A stretch of 63,591 nt of DNA from a virus (Duplodnaviria > Caudoviricetes). Below, piece by piece: positions 1 to 11,086 of this stretch. Made by a program: the position numbers and the translations under genes. Below the pieces are notes generated by a model that did no database searches, was not told the origin of the DNA, and saw nothing but the letters and a program-made list of their open reading frames with translations. Each line of letters opens with the position of its first letter. Positions within the stretch are counted from its first letter, which is position 1. Location: positions 1 to 63,591 of the IMG/VR virus record IMGVR_UViG_3300044835_000051; one strand, written 5' to 3'.

Positions 1-141
1 TACCGCGTCATCGGCGGCTCCGACTGGGCCTACGCTCGCTGCGAGCGCTGCGGCGACGAGGGTATCGTCACCCCGTTCGGTGGCCTCATGTGGCGGGAGA
101 TTCTCGGCACGTTCTTCAAGCGCTGGCGCTGTCATGGCTGA
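1..141 (+). CDS. 3' end of a small CxxC-containing hypothetical protein (truncated by window edge)
   Basis: Frame 1 reads YRVIGGSDWAYARCERCGDEG...RWRCHG* and its stop overlaps the terminase start region. Confidence 0.55.
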   Translation, partial: YRVIGGSDWAYARCERCGDEGIVTPFGGLMWREILGTFFKRWRCHG

Positions 142-2923
142 GGGCACGCTGGGCATCATCGACAGGCAGTCCGACATACGCTCGCTCGAAGGCATGTGGA
201 TGCTGGACGATGATGACTGGAGTTTGATCGCCCAGCTCTGCGACCCGGTGTACCTGAGCGAGCTTCTCTTCAGCGACCCGAACAACGCCACGTACAGCGG
301 GTGTTACCATGTGCGCGACTACCAGTACGTCCTGTTTCGCACCACCACCAACTACGAGGTGCGTCCCTGTTCGAGAGACGTCGGGAAAACTGAAAGCATA
401 AAAGCACGCGCAGTCTCCCACACCTTCCGGCGCCTCGGCGAAGACATGCTCGTCACCGCGCCTGAGCTGCTTCACCTCGAAGGTGTCACGGTGCACATCG
501 AGAATCGCATCACCGAGACCAGGCTCACCCGAGACTTCCTGCGCACCGACGCCCAGAGAACCGGCATCACTCATAAGCCCTTCGCCGTCGTCTTCGCGGA
601 CGGCACCCGTATTCTCGGACGCATACCGCACATCACCGGCCTCGGAGTCAAGTCAATGCACGAGCCCGACCTCGTCATCGACGAAGCCCAGGACTACCCG
701 CAAGCCGGCTGGGTCGAAGTCCACCCGACCGTCATCAAGGACCACACCGGCCCGGACGGCAAATACGACTTCACCTACCTGGCCTACGGCGTCCACGTCG
801 GCGGCACGGGCGGACAGTTCGGCAAGATTTCGACCTCCGGCGCCTTCAAGGTAACGGCAGTTACGTGCTTACAGAAGCCGGGGTGGAACAAGGCCGAGAA
901 AGAGGCGGCCATTGCGATGTACGGCGGTGTCAACACCCCCGACTACCGACGCAACATTCTCGGCGAGAAAGGCCAGTCGCTCTCCCAGTTCTTCGTCACG
1001 TCACATTTGATGGCCTGCTTCCAAGGTGATACACTGGTGGCTACTAGCAATGGACCTCGACCGATCGCGGAGCTGCGAGCCGGCGATCGAGTGCTGAACG
1101 CGAGCGGGGAAGGACCCGTGCTCGCGGCGAGGGCCAGCGAGCACGGGAGGGTGGCCGTTGTCAAGCTCAACGGGGAAGAGATCGTCTGCTCGCCAGAGCA
1201 CCCCTTCTTCTCGGAAGGTGGCTGGTGCCGTGCCGACCAGCTCCGGCGAGGCCAGCGCATCTACCGACAGTCGGAGACAATGCGAGGTCTGCGGGGAGGT
1301 GCTGAAGACGCGCCAGGGCCGCTTCTGCTCCAAGACCTGCGCCGGGAGCTGGCTGGGGAGCACGCGCCGCGGCGGTCCGCCGACACGCAAGAACGCGACG
1401 ATGACACACGTCTGCGAAGCGTGCGGCAAGACGTTCGCGCGGTCGGGCGTGGCGAGGTTCTGTTCGAGGAAGTGCATGGGGAAGGTCTTTGGCGACAGCC
1501 GGCGGTTGGCCCCCAAGAACTGCTGGACGTGTGGGGTGGAGTTCCAGCCAAGGGCGAGCGCTTCACGATATTGCAGTCGCAAATGTCTGGGCGTGAAGGT
1601 GGCCGCAACCAACGCATCGAGACGGGGCATGACGACCCGGTCGATACAGCGCTGGGAGTATGGGGGTTTGCCGGAACCGCAGTATCGTCTCTGGATGGCG
1701 CTCGGCGGTCCGGAGGAGGGGTGGTACGCCCAGTTCTTTATTGCCCCCTTCGATGGGCGCCTTGGCGTTACGAGCTTCACACTCGACCTGGCGCTCCCCG
1801 TGCTGGCGCTTGCGGTGGAAGTGGACGGTCGCGGTCATGGTGTCGCCGCGCAGCGCAAGAAGGACGAGGTGCGCGACGCGTGGCTGGCGAACTCAGGGTG
1901 GACGGTGTTGAGATTTACGAACCGGGAAGTGATGGCTGGGCCGAGCATTGTGGTGAGGGAGATTTGGTCACGCTATACGACCTGACCGTAGGTGGGCACC
2001 CGTCCTTTGCCGTGGGCGACTCGCGTGCTCTGGTTCACAATTGCATGGACCAGGACAAGGAGTCGCGCTACAACACGATCACCTTCAAGGCACAGGAGAT
2101 ACAGTCCGAGGACGTACCGTCGATGATCGCGGAGGACGGCGACGTCGGCGACGTACTCGACCTGCCGGACGGCCTCGGCCAGCAGGTCTACGGCGGCATG
2201 GACGTCGGGCTCGTCACCGACCCGACCGTCATACAGGTATGGGCCGTGCTCCCCGACAGCGCGCGTAAGAGCAGACTCCAGTTGATTCGCATGTTCCACC
2301 TGTGGCGCTTCACCGAACGCCAGATTCGCCAGTGCACCTACCGCATCGCCCGCAAGTATGGGCTCACCCTGCGAGCGTTCGGCCAGGACATCACCGGGCT
2401 CGGTCTGCCGCTCTATCAGGCGATGGAGTCGGACGAGAAGTGCCCGGAGCATCTGAAGGAAGTGTCACGCGGGTACGTGTTCAACGCCAAGGTGCCGGTC
2501 TCGGTGGACAAGAACTACGTGTCCAAGGAAGGCACGAACATGGTCGACCAGTTCGGGCACATCGTCGAAGAGGTGCGTGACAAGTGGACAGGCCGCGTCG
2601 ACCTCGTGGCACGCATGACGATGATCGAAGCGTCGACCCGCTACCTGCGCGGGTTCGTCGACCCCGGTTTCCTCCTCCTGCCGTTCCACGCCGAGCTGAT
2701 CGACGACTTCCAAGGCGAGACCGAGCAGCGCGTGCGAGCGATGGGCGGGGTCAAGAAGAAGCCCAACGCCTTCCACATGCTCGACGCCGCACGAGCGATG
2801 GCGATGGCGTATAAATCGGGGGAGATGGAGGAGGCCGTCTACGCCAGGAACGTCGGGGCGCCAGTGTTTGATCGCGCGGTGGGTGGACCCGGCGTTCTTG
2901 CGGGCCAGGTGAGGCAGGGGTGA
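134..2923 (+). CDS. terL: Terminase large subunit, intein-containing
   Basis: Walker A-like SRDVGKT, Walker B LVIDEAQD, RNase H-like nuclease motifs YGGMDVG and HMLDAAR; lies upstream of portal. ATG 134 preferred over GTG 80. Confidence 0.88.
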   Translation: MAEGTLGIIDRQSDIRSLEGMWMLDDDDWSLIAQLCDPVYLSELLFSDPNNATYSGCYHVRDYQYVLFRTTTNYEVRPCSRDVGKTESIKARAVSHTFRRLGEDMLVTAPELLHLEGVTVHIENRITETRLTRDFLRTDAQRTGITHKPFAVVFADGTRILGRIPHITGLGVKSMHEPDLVIDEAQDYPQAGWVEVHPTVIKDHTGPDGKYDFTYLAYGVHVGGTGGQFGKISTSGAFKVTAVTCLQKPGWNKAEKEAAIAMYGGVNTPDYRRNILGEKGQSLSQFFVTSHLMACFQGDTLVATSNGPRPIAELRAGDRVLNASGEGPVLAARASEHGRVAVVKLNGEEIVCSPEHPFFSEGGWCRADQLRRGQRIYRQSETMRGLRGGAEDAPGPLLLQDLRRELAGEHAPRRSADTQERDDDTRLRSVRQDVRAVGRGEVLFEEVHGEGLWRQPAVGPQELLDVWGGVPAKGERFTILQSQMSGREGGRNQRIETGHDDPVDTALGVWGFAGTAVSSLDGARRSGGGVVRPVLYCPLRWAPWRYELHTRPGAPRAGACGGSGRSRSWCRRAAQEGRGARRVAGELRVDGVEIYEPGSDGWAEHCGEGDLVTLYDLTVGGHPSFAVGDSRALVHNCMDQDKESRYNTITFKAQEIQSEDVPSMIAEDGDVGDVLDLPDGLGQQVYGGMDVGLVTDPTVIQVWAVLPDSARKSRLQLIRMFHLWRFTERQIRQCTYRIARKYGLTLRAFGQDITGLGLPLYQAMESDEKCPEHLKEVSRGYVFNAKVPVSVDKNYVSKEGTNMVDQFGHIVEEVRDKWTGRVDLVARMTMIEASTRYLRGFVDPGFLLLPFHAELIDDFQGETEQRVRAMGGVKKKPNAFHMLDAARAMAMAYKSGEMEEAVYARNVGAPVFDRAVGGPGVLAGQVRQG
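1016..2041 (+). mobile_element. Intein (342 aa) in TerL, between the ATPase and nuclease domains
   Basis: Block A CFQGDTLV at 1016, block B CSPEHPF, GWCRADQL motif, block F LYDLTVGGHPSF, block G LVHN ending 2041, +1 residue Cys (2042-2044). Confidence 0.93.
1230..1985 (+). CDS. Nested +1-frame gene inside the intein: 3 zinc-finger repeats + DUF559/Vsr-like endonuclease (candidate homing endonuclease)
   Basis: ORF 1158-1985 has CEVCG..FCSKTC, CEACG..FCSRKC and CWTCG..YCSRKC, then FTLDLA..LAVEVDGRGH..KKDEVRDAWL..GWTVLRFTN; codons end mostly in G/C; GGAAGG (1213-1218) precedes GTG 1230. Confidence 0.85.
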   Translation: MPTSSGEASASTDSRRQCEVCGEVLKTRQGRFCSKTCAGSWLGSTRRGGPPTRKNATMTHVCEACGKTFARSGVARFCSRKCMGKVFGDSRRLAPKNCWTCGVEFQPRASASRYCSRKCLGVKVAATNASRRGMTTRSIQRWEYGGLPEPQYRLWMALGGPEEGWYAQFFIAPFDGRLGVTSFTLDLALPVLALAVEVDGRGHGVAAQRKKDEVRDAWLANSGWTVLRFTNREVMAGPSIVVREIWSRYTT

Positions 2924-3393
2924 AACTGTACGGCCGCCAAGGCGGACACGCGCTCGTTGACGACCACCTGTCCGAGTGGCTGGGCGAGTGGCGTTGGCAC
3001 GCCAACTCTCGTGGCTACGTTGTGCGCACTGTCCACGTGTATATCGACGGTCGGCGGAAGTCGCGCACGGTTCTCATGCACCGCGAAATCTTGGGGCTCG
3101 CCTACGGAGACCCGCGGCAGGGCGATCACGAGGACGGGAACAAGCTGGACAACCGCGGGTCCAATCTGCGCATCGCGCACCGCGGGCAGCTCGACAACCA
3201 ACAGAACCGGCAGGGACCGAACAGGAACGGCACCTCCGGCTATCGTGGTGTCACGTCGGACGGGCGGGGCCGGTGGCAGGCGCAGGTCGGGCTTGGCCGC
3301 CGCCTGCATCACCTTGGGCGCTTCGATACGCCCGAGGCCGCAGCAGCAGCCGCCGAAGCCTTCCGCGAGGCCCACATGGAGTTCGCCCGATGA
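2920..3393 (+). CDS. HNH endonuclease with C-terminal AP2 domain
   Basis: MHREIL..GDHEDGNKLDNRGSNLR (HNH), SGYRGV..WQAQV..HLGRFDTPEAAA (AP2). Confidence 0.88.
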   Translation: MKLYGRQGGHALVDDHLSEWLGEWRWHANSRGYVVRTVHVYIDGRRKSRTVLMHREILGLAYGDPRQGDHEDGNKLDNRGSNLRIAHRGQLDNQQNRQGPNRNGTSGYRGVTSDGRGRWQAQVGLGRRLHHLGRFDTPEAAAAAAEAFREAHMEFAR

Positions 3394-3548
3394 TCGCCCA
3401 CCTCTTCCAGTGGTGGTATGACATTCGCTTCTACCACAAGCACCGGGTCGAGCTGCACAACCTCATCGCCGCAGCACGGGACCTCGACCGAAGCTGCACC
3501 GAGGAACTCGCCCGTCGTGCCTACGAGCCGCTCCCCCTCGGTGACTGA
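3390..3548 (+). CDS. Small hypothetical protein
   Basis: ATGA overlap with HNH stop; MIAHLFQWWY...PLGD. Confidence 0.5.
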   Translation: MIAHLFQWWYDIRFYHKHRVELHNLIAAARDLDRSCTEELARRAYEPLPLGD

Positions 3549-4229: not shown

Positions 4230-6728
4230 ATGACCGAGCCGGCGTTTCCCCCAGTGGCTCAGCCCGTTATGCGCCAGGGTCACAAGGGCGAGATGGTCAA
4301 CGCGGTGATCGACAACCGCACCGACCTGCCCGACGAGATGGTCCGCCAGGCCGTGCGCGACCAGTGGGTTGAGGCCGCCGGCCTCCAGTTCGCCCAGCCC
4401 AACAACTTCCAGCTCTACATCAACAACCAAGGGAGCATGCTGGCCCGGACGCCGTTCAGGACCCCCACCTCGGTTATCGACGAAATCAGGTTGGCCCGTA
4501 CGCTCGCGGACACGGACGACGACACCGGGGCGGCGATGGGGCAGATGATCGCCATCGCCTTCGGGGAGGGCGTCGTCAACCAGCACCGCGACGAGAAGAC
4601 GCTGGAGTTCTTCAACCAGATGACGGCTCCAAAGGCGATGGACCTCGAAGCCATCTTGGAGGAGCTGTACCGCGAGTACCTCATCGCCGCGTCCGTGACC
4701 ACGGTGACACTGTTCACCCGCAAGCGCATGCAGTACTGGCCGCTGAAGAGTGACGAGCCCGTGCAGGCCCAGCTTCAGGTGCCGAACGTCGGCATCTTGC
4801 CGGCCGAGAACGTCCGCGTCATCACCAACGACATCATCGGCGGCGGCCAGCTCGCCTACCACGTCGAGGACCAGAACCTCAAGGCGTGGCTCAACGAGTA
4901 CCTCGACCCGAAGACCAGCGGCCAGCGCAAGGCGTTCATGGCGATGGCCGAGCCCGTCGTCGCCGCTCTCTTCATCGGGAAGCTTCAGGTTCCCTACAAC
5001 GACGGCGACACCGCCTCGCGCGGGCTCACCCTCTACACGCTCAATCAGCGCATGGTCCACCGCACGACGATGCCGAAGGGCGCCACCCCCTACCCGCGCC
5101 CGCTGCTGACACGCAACTTCGCATTGATCGAGGCGAAGAGGTTGCTCAACATCATGGACTACGCGCTCCTCCAGGGCGGCACCAACTACATAGTGGTCGC
5201 TAAGAAGGGCTCGGACCTCCTCCCGGCACAGCAGGGTGAAGTGGACAACCTGATCGAGCAGGTGTCCTTCGCCTCCCGCTCCGGTGTCATGGTCGGCGAT
5301 CACCGGCTCCAGATCGAGATCATCACGCCGAAGCTCGACGAACTCCTCAACCCCGCCAAGCGGAAGCTGATCGGCCGCAAGCTGAAGATGGGCCTCATGC
5401 GCCAGACCGAGGAGGTGCCGAACGACACAGGCACCCAAGGTGGCGTGAACGAGATGGAGTTGACAGCTCGCGTGGTCTCTGCGGACCGACGCAAGTTGGT
5501 CCGTCACGTGCAGGCGACCTTCTACGACGAGACCGCCACGAGGAACCGCAACATCTTCAAGATGGGGGCACCGTCGATCTGGGCGCCGAAGATCGTGCTC
5601 TCCAACGTCGCCCTGTTCTGGACCAACGTCCTTCAGGCCCGCGACCGCGGTGACATTCCCCGCCGCTGGGTCGTCGAAGCGCTCGGCTATGACTATGACG
5701 CTGCACTCGCCGAGCGCGAGCGTGAGATCGCCCGCGGCGACGACGAGGTCCTCATGCCCGGCGCCGTTCCCTTCTCGAACCCCGGCGAGCCCCAGGACAA
5801 CTCACCCGGCCGTCCCGCGGGGAGCAGCACGAACAACGGCCGCGGTCAGGACCGCCCCGGCCAGGGCCGCGACGCCGCCGCCCCGCGGAAGGTCATTCAT
5901 CGCAATGCCGGGGAGACGATCAAGGCGATCGTCGAGGGCGAAGAGGTCCACTACATCGGCGAGACAACCGCGGCGATCTTGGACGAGTACGGCGACCACG
6001 CCGACTACAACGTCTACGTCACCTCGGCCGAGCGTGACTGCATCGACTTCAATCAGGTGCTCCGCTCCGGCCCGTCCGTGATCGTCCCCGTCAACGCCGG
6101 CTCGATCTGCGACGAGTTCGCGTGTGTCAAGCTGGAGGAGGGGCTGCGCATGGTCGTCGGCCGGCGCATCGGCGACGGCGCGATGGTCGCCCGCGCCCTG
6201 CGCTTCTCCGAGCCGCGCTGGGACCTCAAGGGCGCCACCGAACGCGCACTGCGGTGGGGCTTCATGTCCTCACCGCTGGTGGAGAACGCGGCCGGCAAGG
6301 CGACGTGCACCAACTGCGGCATGGCATTGGCGGACTGGCCGGCCAACACCGTCTGCGCGACGTGCGGCACCGACAACACGGTCGGGCAGTCGAACGCCGA
6401 AGGTGTCTCGGGCGGAGTCGAGATGGGCGCCCAGCTCGGCGCCCTGCGCGAGTCGCTCGACCGGCTCGCGCTCGACATCGCCCGCCCCCCGGCCCTTCCC
6501 GAAGTCGTGTGGCGCCCCATTGATGACTGGTCCGCCGAGACCTACCAGGCACCGTCGCAGGCCGAGCGCGAAGCGTTCCAGGGAGTTCACGGCAAGGACT
6601 CGGGCGTGTCACTGAAGAAGGACAAGGACGGCTTCTTCGTCCACACCCACCGCGCCCGGTCCAAGAGTCACGCCAAGCCCGAGGACATTCCCAAGGCGGA
6701 CGTCAAGTTCATCGAGAGCACGGGCTGA
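4230..6728 (+). CDS. Portal protein with long C-terminal extension
   Basis: Position between terminase and protease/capsid; about 520-aa portal-sized core followed by G/P-rich linker, extra domain, CxxC..CxxC and HTHRARSKS tail. Confidence 0.7.
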   Translation: MTEPAFPPVAQPVMRQGHKGEMVNAVIDNRTDLPDEMVRQAVRDQWVEAAGLQFAQPNNFQLYINNQGSMLARTPFRTPTSVIDEIRLARTLADTDDDTGAAMGQMIAIAFGEGVVNQHRDEKTLEFFNQMTAPKAMDLEAILEELYREYLIAASVTTVTLFTRKRMQYWPLKSDEPVQAQLQVPNVGILPAENVRVITNDIIGGGQLAYHVEDQNLKAWLNEYLDPKTSGQRKAFMAMAEPVVAALFIGKLQVPYNDGDTASRGLTLYTLNQRMVHRTTMPKGATPYPRPLLTRNFALIEAKRLLNIMDYALLQGGTNYIVVAKKGSDLLPAQQGEVDNLIEQVSFASRSGVMVGDHRLQIEIITPKLDELLNPAKRKLIGRKLKMGLMRQTEEVPNDTGTQGGVNEMELTARVVSADRRKLVRHVQATFYDETATRNRNIFKMGAPSIWAPKIVLSNVALFWTNVLQARDRGDIPRRWVVEALGYDYDAALAEREREIARGDDEVLMPGAVPFSNPGEPQDNSPGRPAGSSTNNGRGQDRPGQGRDAAAPRKVIHRNAGETIKAIVEGEEVHYIGETTAAILDEYGDHADYNVYVTSAERDCIDFNQVLRSGPSVIVPVNAGSICDEFACVKLEEGLRMVVGRRIGDGAMVARALRFSEPRWDLKGATERALRWGFMSSPLVENAAGKATCTNCGMALADWPANTVCATCGTDNTVGQSNAEGVSGGVEMGAQLGALRESLDRLALDIARPPALPEVVWRPIDDWSAETYQAPSQAEREAFQGVHGKDSGVSLKKDKDGFFVHTHRARSKSHAKPEDIPKADVKFIESTG

Positions 6729-6975: not shown

Positions 6976-8325
6976 ATGGAAATCTCACACCTAATGCGCC
7001 CGCAGGCATTCGAGCTGGGCGACAAGCTGTACCTGACCACGCCGCTCCTGCTGGCGACGCCGAGCGTGCAGCAGGTCGACGAGTACGCCTTCGCGAGCGC
7101 CGTCAAGAGCCAGGCGCCGAACGAGAACATCGGCTGGCTGTCGGGCAAGTACGTCGAAGGCGGTAAGCCGAACCTCAACGGAGCCATGTGGCTCAACGAC
7201 GAACTCGCACTGAAGTCGCTGACGCCGATGCTCATGCCCGTGACCGTCATGCACGACCCGCGGACCGCGGTGGGCGTCATCGCCGACTGCAAGCTCATCT
7301 CCGAGGGGTCGAACCGCATCGACAACATTCTCGCCGTGTGGCGCCACCGCTTCTCCGAAGTGTGGGCGGAGGCGGAGCACAATCTCGGCCAGGGGACGCT
7401 GGCCGAGAGCATGGAATGCTACGCGCCGAACTACGACTGCTCGTCCTGCGGGCAGCAGTACGTCAAGCTCCCGAACGGCGCCGAGAAGGCCGCCTGGTGC
7501 GAGCACTTACGGGCCGACGCCAGTTCGCCCTCACGCGGCTGGCGTATATTACGTGATGTCTGCTTCACCGGGACAGGACTGATCTTCGGGACTCGTGGTG
7601 GCCTGCCGGCATATTCGGAGGCCACGCTGGACTACTTCCAGAACGAGATCGCCGAAGCACACGACAAGTCCCATCACGACGGCACGTACCGACCGACGAA
7701 CAGGAGCGCGAGTCACATGGCATTGGTTCAGATCGAGGAGAGCGAACTGACCGCTCTGCGCGCCGAGCGCACTGCCGCGCTGGCTGCGGTCGAGACGGCG
7801 AAGGACGAGAAGCGCGAGCTGACCGGCAAGGTCGAGAAGGCCGAGGCCGAGAAGGTCGCCGCCGAGACCGCCAAGACCGCCGCCGAGACGAAGGTCGCCA
7901 CGCTGGAGACCGCCGCCCAGGCCGTCTCCCTGAAGGACAAGCGCCTGTCCACCCTCGGCGCCGGCTTCCTCGCGAAGCTCGGCGAGACGAGCAAGGCCAA
8001 CCTCAACGAGCTGGCCGGCACCGCGTCCGACGACGCATGGGACAAGGCCCTGATCGAGCGCGAGGAGTACGCCAGCGGCGCCGTTCCCGGCTCCGTCAAG
8101 CGCGACTTCGCGGGCGAGCCCGGCGCGGCCCCGGTGGCCCCCGGCGTCACGCCACCCGCCGCGCCCGCCGGCACGACGTTCGCCGACGACGAGGTCGCGG
8201 CCTTCGTGCGCGGCGGCGTCGCCACGCAGGGCGCCGCGCCCGTCCCCGACGGCGCATCGTCGGTCGGCAAGATCGCACGGTCGCTCGGCAAGAAGACTCC
8301 CGCTCCGGCCGGAGCTGCGAAGTAA
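6976..8325 (+). CDS. Prohead maturation protease fused to scaffolding domain
   Basis: SD AAGGAG; PVTVMHD..AVG (His) and LAESMEC (Ser) protease-like motifs, FTGTGLI..PAY; C-terminal Ala/Glu/Lys coiled coil; upstream of capsid genes. Confidence 0.7.
   Translation: MEISHLMRPQAFELGDKLYLTTPLLLATPSVQQVDEYAFASAVKSQAPNENIGWLSGKYVEGGKPNLNGAMWLNDELALKSLTPMLMPVTVMHDPRTAVGVIADCKLISEGSNRIDNILAVWRHRFSEVWAEAEHNLGQGTLAESMECYAPNYDCSSCGQQYVKLPNGAEKAAWCEHLRADASSPSRGWRILRDVCFTGTGLIFGTRGGLPAYSEATLDYFQNEIAEAHDKSHHDGTYRPTNRSASHMALVQIEESELTALRAERTAALAAVETAKDEKRELTGKVEKAEAEKVAAETAKTAAETKVATLETAAQAVSLKDKRLSTLGAGFLAKLGETSKANLNELAGTASDDAWDKALIEREEYASGAVPGSVKRDFAGEPGAAPVAPGVTPPAAPAGTTFADDEVAAFVRGGVATQGAAPVPDGASSVGKIARSLGKKTPAPAGAAK
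7717..8325 (+). CDS. Probable in-frame internal start yielding free scaffolding protein (MALVQIEE...)
   Basis: AGGAG at 7702-7706 precedes in-frame ATG 7717 at the start of the coiled coil. Confidence 0.5.
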   Translation: MALVQIEESELTALRAERTAALAAVETAKDEKRELTGKVEKAEAEKVAAETAKTAAETKVATLETAAQAVSLKDKRLSTLGAGFLAKLGETSKANLNELAGTASDDAWDKALIEREEYASGAVPGSVKRDFAGEPGAAPVAPGVTPPAAPAGTTFADDEVAAFVRGGVATQGAAPVPDGASSVGKIARSLGKKTPAPAGAAK

Positions 8326-8368
8326 GGGCTACGGCCCAACGAAAGTTCATCGAGAGGAGCCTGAGAAA

Positions 8369-8980
8369 ATGTCCCCCGTCGCTCTTACGCAGGTCGGCGC
8401 ATACCCGCTGCTCGGCGTCGGCCAACTGCCGAACGTCGATGTCGCGTCCCCCGGCGAGGTCTGGTCACACCGGGCCGCCAACGGCGTCATCGTGCCTGGC
8501 ACGCCACTCGTCCCCACGATCGTCGGCGGCGTCGAGTGCGTGCGCCCGATCGTCGGCGGGGACACCATCGTCCTCTCGGGCGACGGACTGCGCCGCGAGG
8601 CCATCTCGGTCGCGTTCCGCCAGATCATGATTCCGGACCAAAACTTCGGGAGTCAGTACAACCCGGCGTTGGGTCCGAACGAGATCGTCAACCTGCCGAT
8701 CGCCTCGGGCGACTACGTGCGCGAGTACCTGACGGGCGTGCTGAACCTGACGCTCGTCGTGCCCGACGCCACGTACGCTCCCGGTGACATCATCGGCTGG
8801 GACGCGACCGGCACCCGCCCGGCGGGCAAGACGGCCGGCACCGGGGCGTGGGCGAAGCACACCGACGACTCTTCGGTCGTCGCCAACACGGACATCTTCA
8901 TCGTCCACCGCATGCCGCGTTTCTACGGCGTCGCGGGCGAGTGTGTCCTGACCTGCCGATTCCTGCGGAGCAATCAGTAG
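8369..8980 (+). CDS. Head decoration/capsid cement protein (putative)
   Basis: SD GAGGAG; beta-rich 203-aa ORF between scaffold and capsid genes. Confidence 0.6.
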   Translation: MSPVALTQVGAYPLLGVGQLPNVDVASPGEVWSHRAANGVIVPGTPLVPTIVGGVECVRPIVGGDTIVLSGDGLRREAISVAFRQIMIPDQNFGSQYNPALGPNEIVNLPIASGDYVREYLTGVLNLTLVVPDATYAPGDIIGWDATGTRPAGKTAGTGAWAKHTDDSSVVANTDIFIVHRMPRFYGVAGECVLTCRFLRSNQ

Positions 8981-9013
8981 GCGCTAGGCGACTACGAGAG
9001 GAGCAAGACGAAC

Positions 9014-9952
9014 ATGGAAGCCATAGTCGAACGAGCGCTTGCCGAAGTGGCTGGGGTCGAGGACGACGATCGCCGGCAGGCGATGATGCGTGACTCGAAC
9101 GTCATGCTGGGTCGTCACTTCCGCCGTCACCCGCAGGAGATGGAGGAGGTCGCATTCCAGCTCTTCTCCCTCGCCTGGTCGGACATGATGGCCGAGTCGA
9201 TCGTTCCGAAGGTCATCGGCGTCAAGACCGTGGGCCTCGGCGACGTCGACTGGGTGGACGAGGACCTGCGCGGCATGACCGCGTACTTCCAGGGCAAGGG
9301 TGGCCAGATTTTGAGCGACATGCTCAGGTATCAGCGCACGCTCATGCCGCGTCAGGAGATGGCGGCTGCGATCGACCTTCACCGCGACGAGATTCTCCTC
9401 GACTTCTGGGGCACCTTCGGGAAGCTTCAGGAGCAGGCTCGCGAGAAGATCAACCAGCTCCCCGTCCGTCAGCTCATCTCGCTCGTGCAGTCGGGCATCA
9501 CTTCGGGGACGACCTACGGGACGTTCCCGGCGGTCACCCTGACGGCCAACAACATCGACCCGATTCTCGACTTCGTGGCGCAGCGCTCGAAGGGGCAGAT
9601 CACGCTCCTCGGCGCCCGCAACGCGGTCCGCATCTTGTCGAACATCGGCGCCCAGTTCGGCCCCAACGTGGCGGAGCGCATCTTCGTCGCCGGCCAGGTC
9701 GGCCAGTACAAGGGCTACCCGATCGTCGAGGTCGAGAACTTCGAGGACTTCGCGGGCAACCTCGTCGTCCCCGTCAACGAAATCTGGGTCGTCGGGCAGA
9801 ACGCCGGCCGGCTCACCTACTTCGGCCAGGAGCCGAAGGTCCAGCAGCTCCCCCGACCGGGCTTCTATGTCCGCTGGGAGACGGCGCTTGACAGTGGGAT
9901 GCTCCTCTATGGCATCGGCCGAGGACGCATCGGCAGGCTGGTGTTCACCTAG
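9014..9952 (+). CDS. Major capsid protein
   Basis: SD GAGGAG, very strong codon bias, 312 aa, GQYKGYPIVEV motif typical of HK97-fold capsids, followed by a terminator. Confidence 0.8.
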   Translation: MEAIVERALAEVAGVEDDDRRQAMMRDSNVMLGRHFRRHPQEMEEVAFQLFSLAWSDMMAESIVPKVIGVKTVGLGDVDWVDEDLRGMTAYFQGKGGQILSDMLRYQRTLMPRQEMAAAIDLHRDEILLDFWGTFGKLQEQAREKINQLPVRQLISLVQSGITSGTTYGTFPAVTLTANNIDPILDFVAQRSKGQITLLGARNAVRILSNIGAQFGPNVAERIFVAGQVGQYKGYPIVEVENFEDFAGNLVVPVNEIWVVGQNAGRLTYFGQEPKVQQLPRPGFYVRWETALDSGMLLYGIGRGRIGRLVFT

Positions 9953-9999
9953 TCGTATCGAAGCACCGCGAAGCACCTTGAACATGACACCCCAGAGCA

Positions 10000-10035
10000 G
10001 GCCGGCGGCTTCACGGCCGCCGGCCATTTCTCATT
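10000..10035 (+). terminator. Probable intrinsic terminator after capsid gene
   Basis: GGCCGGCGGC-TTCACG-GCCGCCGGCC perfect 10-bp stem followed by ATTTCTCATT. Confidence 0.6.
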
Positions 10036-10063
10036 CACAGGACCACAGGAGGTTGTAACGGAG

Positions 10064-11086
10064 ATGGAAGCGGCAACGGTCCCAACTCAGCTCGTCGAGA
10101 AACGCGAGTACGTCAACAACACCGCCGGCTGGCTCGGCGTGTCAAAGATCAACCACGAGGGCAAGGAGGAGGGCTACAGCATCGAGCCTTACGGCACGGT
10201 GTTCCTCTCCGATGCCGAAGCGATCTTGACCTCGCGTGCTCCCCGCCGCGCGGAGGACAACCCCTTCGAGGAGCAGGTCTTCGTCATGCAGGACGCTCAG
10301 GGCACGCGCTCGGAGATGAGCTTCCGCCCGCTGACCCTCGTCGGCGAGGGCGAGAGCAAGGTGGAGACCAGTGACCGCTTCCTTCCTCACGCGATCTCTC
10401 AGCCTGGCGTTGTCGTGGGCGCCGCCACTCCTCCGGCCGCTACCGAGAAGGCCGCCGAGGTCCTCGGGCTCGGAGGGCCGCCGGTCAAGGCGCCGGACGC
10501 TCTCGTCGTCCCCGCCCAGGCCCCGCCGAGCACCGGCTCGCAGGACACCTCTCCGCCGGCCCCTGCCGCCCCCGACGTCCCCAGTGCCGCCCCGGTCCCG
10601 AAGCCCCGTCAAGAGGCCGCTCCGAAGCCGCCAGCGCCCCCTGTGGGCCTTACGGGCGAACCTGCGCCCGGCGATAGCCCGTTCGCGACGCCGTCGACCG
10701 ACGACGAGATCGAGGCCAAGACGCCGATGGTCGTCGACCCGGTCGCTCCCGGCCAGGTCCTCAGAGGCAACCTCGGCGGCGATGACCAGCTCTCCCCGGA
10801 GGCTCAGGCGCTCGCCGCGGCCGACCCGGTGAACGAGCCGCCGCCCTCCGCGCCGCCGTCGATCGCCGCTCAGGCAGCGCCCCCCTCCCCCGGTAGTGCT
10901 CCCCCGGCTGCCACCGTAACCGGGACGACCGAGGAGGAGCACGCCGGGGTCGTCGACCCTGAGGTCGGCGAGGAGACGGGGCAGGCCAAGCCTCCCGTGG
11001 GCGATGCGCCCGAGGGCGAGTTCGGCCAGGCGGAGGAGGTCGGCTCTCCCGACGCTCCCGAGCACGAGGGCTTCGTCGGCGCGTGA
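10064..11086 (+). CDS. Hypothetical protein, folded N-terminus + Pro/Ala/acidic disordered tail
   Basis: 340-aa ORF, AGGAGG upstream. Confidence 0.7.
   Translation: MEAATVPTQLVEKREYVNNTAGWLGVSKINHEGKEEGYSIEPYGTVFLSDAEAILTSRAPRRAEDNPFEEQVFVMQDAQGTRSEMSFRPLTLVGEGESKVETSDRFLPHAISQPGVVVGAATPPAATEKAAEVLGLGGPPVKAPDALVVPAQAPPSTGSQDTSPPAPAAPDVPSAAPVPKPRQEAAPKPPAPPVGLTGEPAPGDSPFATPSTDDEIEAKTPMVVDPVAPGQVLRGNLGGDDQLSPEAQALAAADPVNEPPPSAPPSIAAQAAPPSPGSAPPAATVTGTTEEEHAGVVDPEVGEETGQAKPPVGDAPEGEFGQAEEVGSPDAPEHEGFVGA

Follow-up and report, generated by a model that had tools for sequence, protein, structure and literature searches.

A phage terminase intein with a nested +1-frame ORF for a putative zinc-finger/Vsr-like nuclease, and its relatives in viral genomes

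The gene for a terminase-large-subunit (TerL)-like protein in IMG/VR virus record IMGVR_UViG_3300044835_000051 was found to carry a class-1 intein, the central part of which encodes three zinc fingers and a DUF559/Vsr-like nuclease in the +1 frame of the same strand. The record is a 63.6-kb viral contig of 66% GC, ~73% complete by CheckV, and its whole length is called the window here. As normally taught, an intein is one polypeptide whose homing endonuclease lies in frame. The insert is probably a two-frame homing element consisting of the intein in the host frame and a free zinc-finger/Vsr-like nuclease made from the +1 frame. The anatomy of the element, the selection acting on each frame, its conservation and its distribution were observed directly. 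Judged by sequence, the window's copy belongs to a large, old family in which the nuclease stop codon, and in many members the start codon too, lies within or beside conserved intein blocks.

An intein in the terminase frame

The host frame is free of stops from 2 to 2923, and alignment with 14 homologues set a 342-aa insert exactly at 1016-2041, where 12 of the 15 aligned sequences have a gap (...LMA↓C.DQD, the arrow marking the junction). The host gene and the parts of the intein in its frame are the following.

134-2923, + strand: host gene, precursor of a terminase-large-subunit-like ATPase/nuclease, 929 aa including the intein (protein P0003)
134-1015, + strand: N-extein, 294 aa, ending ...FFVTSHLMA, aligned with intein-less homologues
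1016-2041, + strand: class-1 intein, 342 aa in the host frame, boundaries from the homologue alignment
1016-1276, + strand: intein N-terminal splicing domain, 87 aa, blocks A and B, matched by Hint/intein hidden Markov models (HMMs)
1277-1963, + strand: host-frame filler, 229 aa, Arg/Gly-rich and stop-free, its sequence unconstrained
1964-2041, + strand: intein C-terminal splicing domain, 26 aa, blocks F and G, ...LVHN, the motif kept in 79 related loci
2042-2923, + strand: C-extein, beginning CMDQDKE (+1 Cys) and including the stop codon

The intein starts with Cys1 (TGC, 1016-1018) in the sequence CFQGDTLVAT (block A). The S-P-E-H of block B (...CSPEHPFF) lies within GEEIVCSPEHPFF and is kept in the homologous proteins P0005 and P0028. 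Block F (YDLTV) reads LYDLTVGGHPSFAV and the intein ends in LYDLTVGGHPSFAVGDSRALVHN (...LVHN↓C), the His-Asn pair (CAC AAT, 2036-2041) being followed by the +1 Cys (TGC, 2042-2044); the block names are those of the intein literature. Hint/intein N-terminal models matched from residue 1 (PT-HINT, 1.4e-8; Hint_2, 4e-6; TIGR01445, 2.3e-4) and were the sole HMM matches of the host-frame intein. The AlphaFold2 model of the host-frame intein, built on a 3-sequence alignment, had a pLDDT (predicted local distance difference test) value of 34 throughout, the Hint parts included, and is uninformative on disorder or fold.

A zinc-finger nuclease in the +1 frame

The nested open reading frame (ORF) and its domains, with residue numbers from its translation, are as follows.

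1158-1985, + strand: nested ORF, +1 frame, TTG to TGA, 275 aa, zinc fingers and DUF559/Vsr-like nuclease
1281-1340, 1413-1475 and 1521-1586, + strand: three CxxC...(F/Y)CSxxC zinc fingers, aa 42-61, 86-106 and 122-143
1662-1970, + strand: nuclease domain (GGLPEPQ...GWTVLRFTNREV) bearing six candidate active-site residues, D, E, D, H, D and N

The ORF matched Pfam DUF559 (PF04480) with an E-value of 1.7e-11 and 44.3 bits over aa 203-271, against a cut-off of 20.6. A four-sequence profile matched 3HRL, a DUF559 protein, in the PDB (E 5e-8) and, weakly, 3R3P, the catalytic domain of the homing endonuclease I-Bth0305I (E 0.25). The AlphaFold2 model of the nested protein, built on a 57-sequence alignment, had a mean pLDDT of 85, rising above 90 in the nuclease domain. 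The top Foldseek matches of this model were 3HRL and 3R3P, with template-modelling (TM) scores of ~0.75-0.77 normalised to the target, and for 3R3P a Foldseek probability of 1.00 at a target-normalised TM of 0.75; PvuRts1I was also matched and Vsr (1VSR) came ninth (E 0.1, TM 0.32), the whole-model E-values being no better than 6e-3. The predicted fold is thus Vsr-like, of the DUF559/PD-(D/E)xK nuclease class. The six active-site candidates are invariant in all 71 unique nested nucleases collected from the related loci described below. In our own mapping, the D, (E/D), H and D of the EDxHD motif are present with a matching H-to-D spacing of 9, the first Glu column being Gln in the window.

The zinc fingers at 1281-1586 are the presumed DNA-recognition module, and their Cys columns are kept in relatives. 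The finger region matched PHROG 1271, 'HNH endonuclease' (E 4e-11), while YacG-type matches were weak; the PHROG match suggests a DNA-binding module common to phage nucleases. One to four CxxC pairs were counted per nested nuclease (29, 27, 7 and 8 of the 71, respectively), and the window's third finger stands where most relatives have an 'MT.RNPM' segment; thus the DNA-binding part looks modular. No second copy of the nuclease was found in the window's record.

The division of the insert had been proposed in an earlier note made from the sequence alone. The complete intein in the TerL frame that it described (Cys1, S-P-E-H, YDLTV and HN↓Cys) was found at each of its positions, the +1 ORF at 1158-1985 proved to encode the three fingers and the DUF559/Vsr-type nuclease, and the HMM search that it advised for both frames returned Hint/intein models in the host frame and DUF559 in the +1 frame.

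Selection changes frame within the intein

An IMG/VR contig of 12.4 kb, L002, encodes P0005, a TerL with the same intein at the same site, and contains an intact +1 ORF of 271 aa that is 61% identical to the nested ORF of the window. The ratio of nonsynonymous to synonymous divergence (dN/dS, omega) was estimated between the window and L002 by the method of Nei and Gojobori with bootstrap. Over 1272-1952 omega was 0.30 (0.20-0.43) in the +1 frame and 1.45 (1.09-1.97) in the host frame, and amino-acid identity over the filler was 62% and 38%, respectively. The relation was reversed over 1158-1271, where omega was 0.14 in the host frame and 2.1 in the +1 frame. In the host frame, omega was 0.26 over 1016-1270 and 0.14 in the C-terminal splicing part, compared with 0.24 for the N-extein and 0.32 for the C-extein. 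Therefore, selection changes frame at about 1272 and again at about 1960. Over 1271-1960 the third codon positions had a GC content (GC3) of 0.80 when read in the +1 frame, against 0.57 in that of the host and 0.82-0.87 in the exteins. These results agree with the earlier note, which had described the centre as Arg/Gly-rich and stop-free, had pointed to the G/C-ending codons of the nested frame and had advised per-frame dN/dS: the centre is unconstrained in the host frame and under purifying selection in the +1 frame, and both splicing domains are under purifying selection in the host frame.

The same division was observed in all 14 evaluable further pairs of loci, omega being 0.09-0.42 for the frame of the nuclease as against 0.90-1.66 for that of the host; the pairs are disjoint, a fifteenth was saturated, and L018/L027 and L020/L029 are near-duplicates of each other. 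A third protein, P0028, has the same intein with an open centre. Its +1 frame was assessed indirectly, from nothing but the residues of the host frame: of 126 conserved nuclease residues, 122 could be encoded in +1 (null mean 24%, maximum 34%) and no +1 stop is forced. The +1 ORF is therefore intact in L002 and inferable in P0028, as the earlier note would have it.

The host frame across the nuclease of the window would be open by chance in 2-4% of simulations that kept the nuclease protein and the window's codon usage, or in 1% by exact calculation over the core. Across 79 loci (the window and 78 others) no stop was found in the host frame over the nuclease core. By exact calculation, the chance of an open frame ranged from 1e-21 to 0.26 per locus with a median of 3e-6, and was below 0.01 in 71 of the 79. 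Across these loci the openness goes far beyond chance, as expected for the two-protein element of the earlier note, in which the frame of the intein has to stay open.

The switches from one frame to the other are sharp, taking 3-4 codons on either side, as two single-base errors would give, and the earlier note had itself named an assembly or sequencing artefact, in which two compensating indels shift a normal in-frame endonuclease out of frame. L002, from another sample, has the same frames and differs from the window by indels of 3 nt and 15 nt only. Logan contigs from two other soil samples are gap-free over 914-1400, 1539-1723 and 1948-2200, and thus at both junctions, and those of the probable source sample cover 900-2200 without a difference. 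The same +1 layout recurs in 79 other viral loci and in four finished phage genomes. With frame-breaking indels absent from the junctions in L002 and in the Logan contigs, an artefact is hardly conceivable.

Insertion site and distribution on the terminase tree

The sequences that flank the intein would together form the target of the nuclease.

1007-1015, + strand: presumed homing site, left half, TTGATGGCC
2042-2050, + strand: presumed homing site, right half, TGCATGGAC

The intein-less allele that the earlier note obtained by joining 1015 to 2042 was correctly read from the window. At the protein level the empty site (...RLMA↓C.DQD) was present in 117 of 120 TerL homologues, including the nearest, P0004, which is 92% identical and has a canonical LAGLIDADG intein elsewhere. 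The intein was present in the other 3 of the 120, at three separate, well-supported places in a FastTree tree of the extein columns. In pairs with P0028, the splicing parts were 63-81% identical compared with 44-51% for the exteins. The patchy distribution fits horizontal spread and is no proof of it. The nuclease would cut at the presumed homing site.

The sole differences of the two other soil samples from the window are the synonymous changes G1000C, A1003T, T1006C and T1007C. These four cluster in 8 nt (1000-1007) directly to the left of the insertion site, in the presumed nuclease target.

Canonical in-frame LAGLIDADG inteins were found at no fewer than four other sites in the same terminase family: after GK(T/A), after ...RIP..TGP(Q), at DE↓C, and as a second one in P0053. 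They occur in the homologues P0004, P0042, P0047, P0053, P0055, P0058, P0060, P0073, P0093 and P0095. With some five insertion sites in all, the terminase gene is therefore a hot-spot for inteins.

A family of two-frame loci

A scan of IMG/VR with the nuclease alignment returned 198 loci encoding relatives, of which 80 were kept and are covered by the counts given here. In 79 of the 80, a long ORF (535-1925 aa) in the frame one base back from the nuclease spans the nuclease match in full, so that the nuclease is always in the +1 frame of the host ORF. Past the nuclease stop, the host frame of these 79 loci reads blocks F and G, for example YDLEV.GHPSYFANG..VHN↓C, followed by C or S. An iterated HMM of the N-terminal splicing part found the Cys1 start (CF..GT.V/I) in 79 of 80 host proteins (the window and the 79 loci), the sole miss, L024, being cut by the contig end. 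Intein lengths ranged from 207 to 440 aa, and the contigs from 29 to 67% GC. The identities of the Hint domains and of the nucleases co-vary (Mantel r 0.31, a value reached by 0 of 999 permutations). None of the 80 viral loci encodes an in-frame version of the nuclease. The search for other inteins with a stop-free centre and an alternate-frame nuclease, which the earlier note had recommended, was in this way answered by 79 of 80 IMG/VR loci.

Seven groups emerged from local clustering of exteins, for the 79 loci whose boundaries are defined (the window and 78 others), most of the groups being named from Pfam scans of eight representatives.

46 loci: SF2/SNF2-type helicases (ResIII, Helicase_C, SNF2-rel), junction mostly DE↓CH
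13 loci: DnaX-like clamp-loader ATPases, junction DE↓CH.LS
8 loci: a family without a name, junction not named
5 loci: very long proteins, junction DEAH↓C
3 loci: helicases, junction HN↓S
2 loci (L021 and L031): TerL with Terminase_6N/6C matches, junction DEA(T/S)R↓C
2 loci (the window and L010/L002): junction LMA↓C

The remaining locus of the 80, L013, has a free-standing zinc-finger and DUF559 gene of 232 aa (L013:2471-3166) with no long ORF in the other frames. It is the sole free-standing member among the 80 and may resemble either the ancestor or an escapee. The helicase gene of L014 (1510-5403) contains two inteins, one of the two-frame type at DE↓C and, downstream, a canonical one whose LAGLIDADG_3 domain is in frame. 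With the intein alignment as query only L002 was recovered, and a scan of genome contigs with the intein returned nothing. Six loci (L003-L008) have the Hint N-part only, without the nuclease.

As a control, bacterial genome contigs were scanned with the same nuclease alignment, and 80 of the 130 loci found were analysed. Of these, 73 are generic DUF559 genes in which CxxC occurs once at most (not at all in 67), mostly from genomes of 60-76% GC. Not one of the 73 was nested in a Hint-bearing ORF, although a few had long open alternative frames; therefore, the nesting test is not positive by default in GC-rich DNA. Six loci were nested, all with CxxC fingers. In L094, a contig of a metagenome-assembled genome (GC 0.66), a nuclease-frame ORF of 112 aa with three CxxC lies inside an open frame of 815 aa; it looks disrupted and is perhaps a two-frame element in decay.

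Bacteria widely encode DUF559 proteins apart from any intein, as would be expected if the nested nuclease were expressed mainly for a role other than homing, such as cutting the DNA of competing phages or of the host, or DUF559/Vsr-like repair. The zinc-finger subfamily, in contrast, occurs almost only in inteins: in 79 of the 80 viral loci, and in every bacterial locus with an intact ORF and at least two CxxC. The covariation of Hint and nuclease divergence, the patchy distribution on the TerL tree and a fold nearest that of the proven homing enzyme I-Bth0305I also argue for homing, and a different main role is quite unlikely.

Proteins P0001 and P0002, together with the 150 best representatives (178-453 aa), had been considered free-standing genes. 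This assignment was withdrawn, the contigs being short or unseen; these proteins may be nested ORFs picked up by gene callers.

The element in cultured phages

A tblastn search with a low-GC member of the family matched 42 GenBank phage records, and in 40 of these the match lies under a coding sequence named helicase, P-loop NTPase, 'coil containing protein' or hypothetical protein. The +1 nuclease was present in all four cultured phages examined, namely Corynebacterium phage phi673 (gp43), Pseudomonas phage MR14 (gp44), Vibrio phage CP-T1 (gp10) and Vibrio phage 1.194.O. The junctions in phi673 and MR14 are DE↓CF...VHN↓CHH, and the nested ORF has its own ATG. To judge from these sequences, plaque-forming phages bear the element inside essential-looking genes. 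The nested nuclease is unannotated in phi673, MR14, CP-T1 and the Vibrio lentus phages, in agreement with the earlier note, which had predicted that single-frame annotation would miss it. A putative intein has been described in gp43 of phi673 that is not in the 85%-identical phi674 (PMC6132909); the passage on that intein says nothing of a nested gene.

Start and stop of the nested gene

The nested stop of the window (TGA, 1983-1985) lies inside block F, so that about 22 bp at the 3' end of the nuclease gene also code for the C-intein. In the loci that were read through (the window, L033 and others), the nested stop is in the Asp-Leu of block F. At the 5' end, the nested ATG of relatives in many cases arises from a host-frame ...(I/V/L)-Tyr-Gly/Asp/Ala... 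with which the N-terminal splicing part closes. The window's nested start codon is uncertain because this family ATG is absent, and the following candidate is proposed.

1145-1160, + strand: candidate translation start, GGGAGGG, 6 nt, TTG (1158-1160), conserved in L002, putative

TTG 1158 is the sole start candidate common to the window and L002. The candidate is spelled in codons that are rare in the window, where AGG makes up 9.6% of the Arg codons, GTT 6% of those for Val and GGG 20% of those for Gly, and the DNA around it is 91% identical to L002. Over 1141-1175, 10 of 12 codons capable of synonymous change are the same as in L002, compared with 100 of 183 in the N-extein. The start at TTG 1158 is nevertheless the weakest link for the window's copy and is put forward as a candidate from these comparisons.

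Ribosomal frameshifting would dispense with a separate start: a +1 shift would give a fusion of N-extein, N-terminal intein part and nuclease, and a +1 shift followed by a -1 shift a conventional intein-endonuclease. Such a mechanism would accord with the frame relation, which is always +1, with the purine-rich runs resembling Shine-Dalgarno (SD) sequences near the junction, and with the want of an ATG before the first finger in the window and five other loci. An ATG of its own precedes the first CxxC in 74 of the 80 nested ORFs (the window and the 79 loci), 2-16 codons before it in 68 and often behind GGAG-like runs. Moreover, the nested ORF has its own stop inside block F, one relative (L013) is free-standing, and an essential protein would be made very inefficiently if each molecule took two shifts. 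No slippery site is conserved between the window and L002 beyond what coding explains, in comparisons that included no search aimed at slippery sites. Frameshifting is very unlikely.

Several observations weigh against the two-frame homing element, or against its full activity in the window. Six loci lack the family ATG before the first finger, the window and L002 among them. The TTG start, 41 codons upstream, is inside the intein N-domain and would add a leader that is not conserved as protein (omega 2.1). With the ATG missing and the leader unconserved, the window's copy might therefore be poorly expressed or not expressed. The column corresponding to Glu25 of Vsr is Gln in the window; among the nested relatives it is Glu in 57 of 71 and Gln in 4. 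Intein and exteins have diverged alike between the window and L002 (synonymous divergence, dS, 0.7-1.3), with no sign of recent transfer between them. The matches that identify the host gene as TerL are weak or indirect, and the viral survey covers 80 of the 198 matches. That the splicing fold tolerates 229 aa of basic filler is an assumption, since the host-frame intein gave no confident model (pLDDT 34).

The first, third and fourth of these points, namely the lost ATG, the Gln and the similar divergence, would also be expected if the window's nested gene were an unexpressed relic and the intein persisted vertically as a large mini-intein. Against a relic stands the omega of 0.30 over 222 codons at a dS of about 1.1, which indicates that selection acted over most of the divergence between the window and L002. 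All six core active-site residues are retained, the SD-like run and TTG are conserved in spite of their rare codons, and the nearest relative, P0004, has an empty site. A relic is unlikely.

The host gene and its neighbours

The host gene is 31.9% identical (tblastn) to the annotated TerL of Caudovirales GX15bay. Its intein-less homologue P0006 gave weak PHROG TerL matches on both halves (E 6e-4 and 2e-3), and the ten best named ESM-Atlas clusters for P0006 all have Terminase_6N/6C. The host gene had no sequence match in Pfam or the PDB, an intein-less TerL profile likewise matched nothing in the PDB, megablast of window positions 1-3400 against GenBank phages gave no match, and a scan of viral contigs with the whole TerL as query found nothing.

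A gene for a 157-aa endonuclease with HNH and AP2 domains (2920-3393, + strand) overlaps the terminase stop codon by 4 nt. It matched Pfam AP2 (3.7e-7) and HNH_3 (8.8e-4) and PHROG 99, 'HNH endonuclease' (3.5e-31), and by these matches is a second, free-standing predicted homing-type nuclease adjoining the same host gene. The large genes that follow the terminase, at 4230-6728 and 6976-11086, had no Pfam match and at most weak matches to PHROGs of unknown function. To judge from these searches, the structural module of the window's phage is far from described families.

Discussion

The results point to the following course of events for the two-frame homing element. The 87-aa N-terminal and 26-aa C-terminal splicing parts, joined by 229 filler codons, would be spliced as one insert from the terminase precursor. 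The nuclease would be made as a free protein by internal initiation, in the window at TTG 1158 behind GGGAGGG and in most relatives at an ATG. Its fingers would recognise the intein-less allele, the enzyme would cut near ...LMA↓C..., and repair would copy intein and nuclease together. Each frame is under its own selection, for sequence in the nuclease and the splicing parts and for openness only in the filler. Splicing of the precursor is suggested by the purifying selection on both splicing parts and by the presence of the element in plaque-forming phages. Taken together with the translation of the +1 ORF, the target and homing, it is what we infer from sequences and predicted structures.

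Elements of a related kind have been described. Gosselin, Arsenault and Gogarten reported 'non-canonical' actinophage inteins with an antisense LAGLIDADG, an antisense VSR-like or a frame-3 endonuclease-VII-like gene (bioRxiv 10.1101/2025.01.02.630785), found such inteins to be rare (63 of 784, of four types) and proposed that a mini-intein was invaded by a free-standing endonuclease gene. As presented in that preprint, these inteins share with the window an open host frame, an unstructured middle, a nuclease of free-standing type in another frame, TerL among the hosts and neglect by annotation. Unlike the types given there, the family of the window is on the sense strand and always in +1, combines zinc fingers with DUF559 and spans many phage groups and GC contents. 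A cyanobacterial dnaX intein with a LAGLIDADG ORF in +2 was reported by Phillips, DeSimone and Gogarten (bioRxiv 10.64898/2026.09.14.751524). It resembles the element of the window in its sense-strand overlap, the low dN/dS of the nuclease frame, the raised value in the host frame and its patchy distribution, but differs, as described, in its LAGLIDADG fold, the +2 frame and its restriction to one host gene and one bacterial phylum. Both preprints cite Gorbalenya 1998.

The fractured genes of Dassa et al. (2009, PMC2677866) have a free-standing Vsr-like or GIY-YIG endonuclease gene between the halves of a split intein. As in the window, a Vsr-like gene stands at the point of endonuclease insertion, in phage-type replication genes, and the 3' end of the nuclease gene overlaps the C-intein, by 6-69 bp in the fractured genes reported there and by about 22 bp in the window. 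In contrast to those genes, the intein of the window is contiguous and its host frame runs through the nuclease gene. The EDxHD family, with I-Bth0305I as prototype, takes its definition from a motif composed of the catalytic residues of Vsr (Taylor et al. 2011, PMC3239194). I-Bth0305I, like the nuclease of the window, joins an N-terminal DNA-binding module to a C-terminal Vsr-like domain with an Asp...His...Asp core. The enzyme described there has NUMOD/helix-turn-helix modules and belongs to a group I intron, whereas the window has zinc fingers, and the match between the two is marginal in sequence (E 0.25), the DUF559 protein 3HRL being the best. In the ShiLan element (PMC11855218), a stop-free insert in the frame of a phage methylase likewise holds a nuclease in another frame; in that account the nuclease is of the HNH type and the insert could not be identified as an intein.

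The concept is therefore already in print for other nucleases and frames, and the element of the window is a variant of a described kind. The earlier note had left novelty to a literature check. The out-of-frame design as such is not new, out-of-frame and antisense intein endonucleases having appeared in the 2025-2026 preprints; the variant, the scale and breadth of the family, its age and its fixed +1 frame appear new. The full-text literature outside subscription journals and supplementary files yielded no sense-strand +1 zinc-finger/DUF559 nuclease in inteins and no large family of such elements.

Whether the layout is an ancient and obligate one is, in our judgement, evenly balanced. On this view it would not be a rare accident: Hint domain and +1 zinc-finger/Vsr-like nuclease would have spread as a unit, into Walker-B-type and other sites of phage helicases, clamp loaders and terminases, in hosts from 29% to 67% GC, and the out-of-frame layout itself would be maintained. 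The sense-strand +1 layout is the rule for a whole nuclease subfamily, kept over deep divergence, in a class of out-of-frame arrangements recently called rare. The finding bears on how inteins acquire endonucleases (the 'splicing first' model), and provides a natural example of dual coding over a long stretch, where all that is required of one frame is to remain open. If the reading is correct, the two-frame layout lets the amount of free nuclease be set separately from that of the host protein. Many 'large mini-inteins' would not be free of endonuclease, and many 'stand-alone' zinc-finger DUF559 proteins in metagenome catalogues would be intein-nested genes. Zinc-finger-guided Vsr-like nucleases may also interest enzyme engineers. 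The intein-plus phage phi673 and the intein-minus phi674, both of which grow on Corynebacterium glutamicum, provide a tractable test system. The family is invisible to annotation in one frame, and its recognition marks unannotated, putatively site-specific nucleases in well-studied phages.

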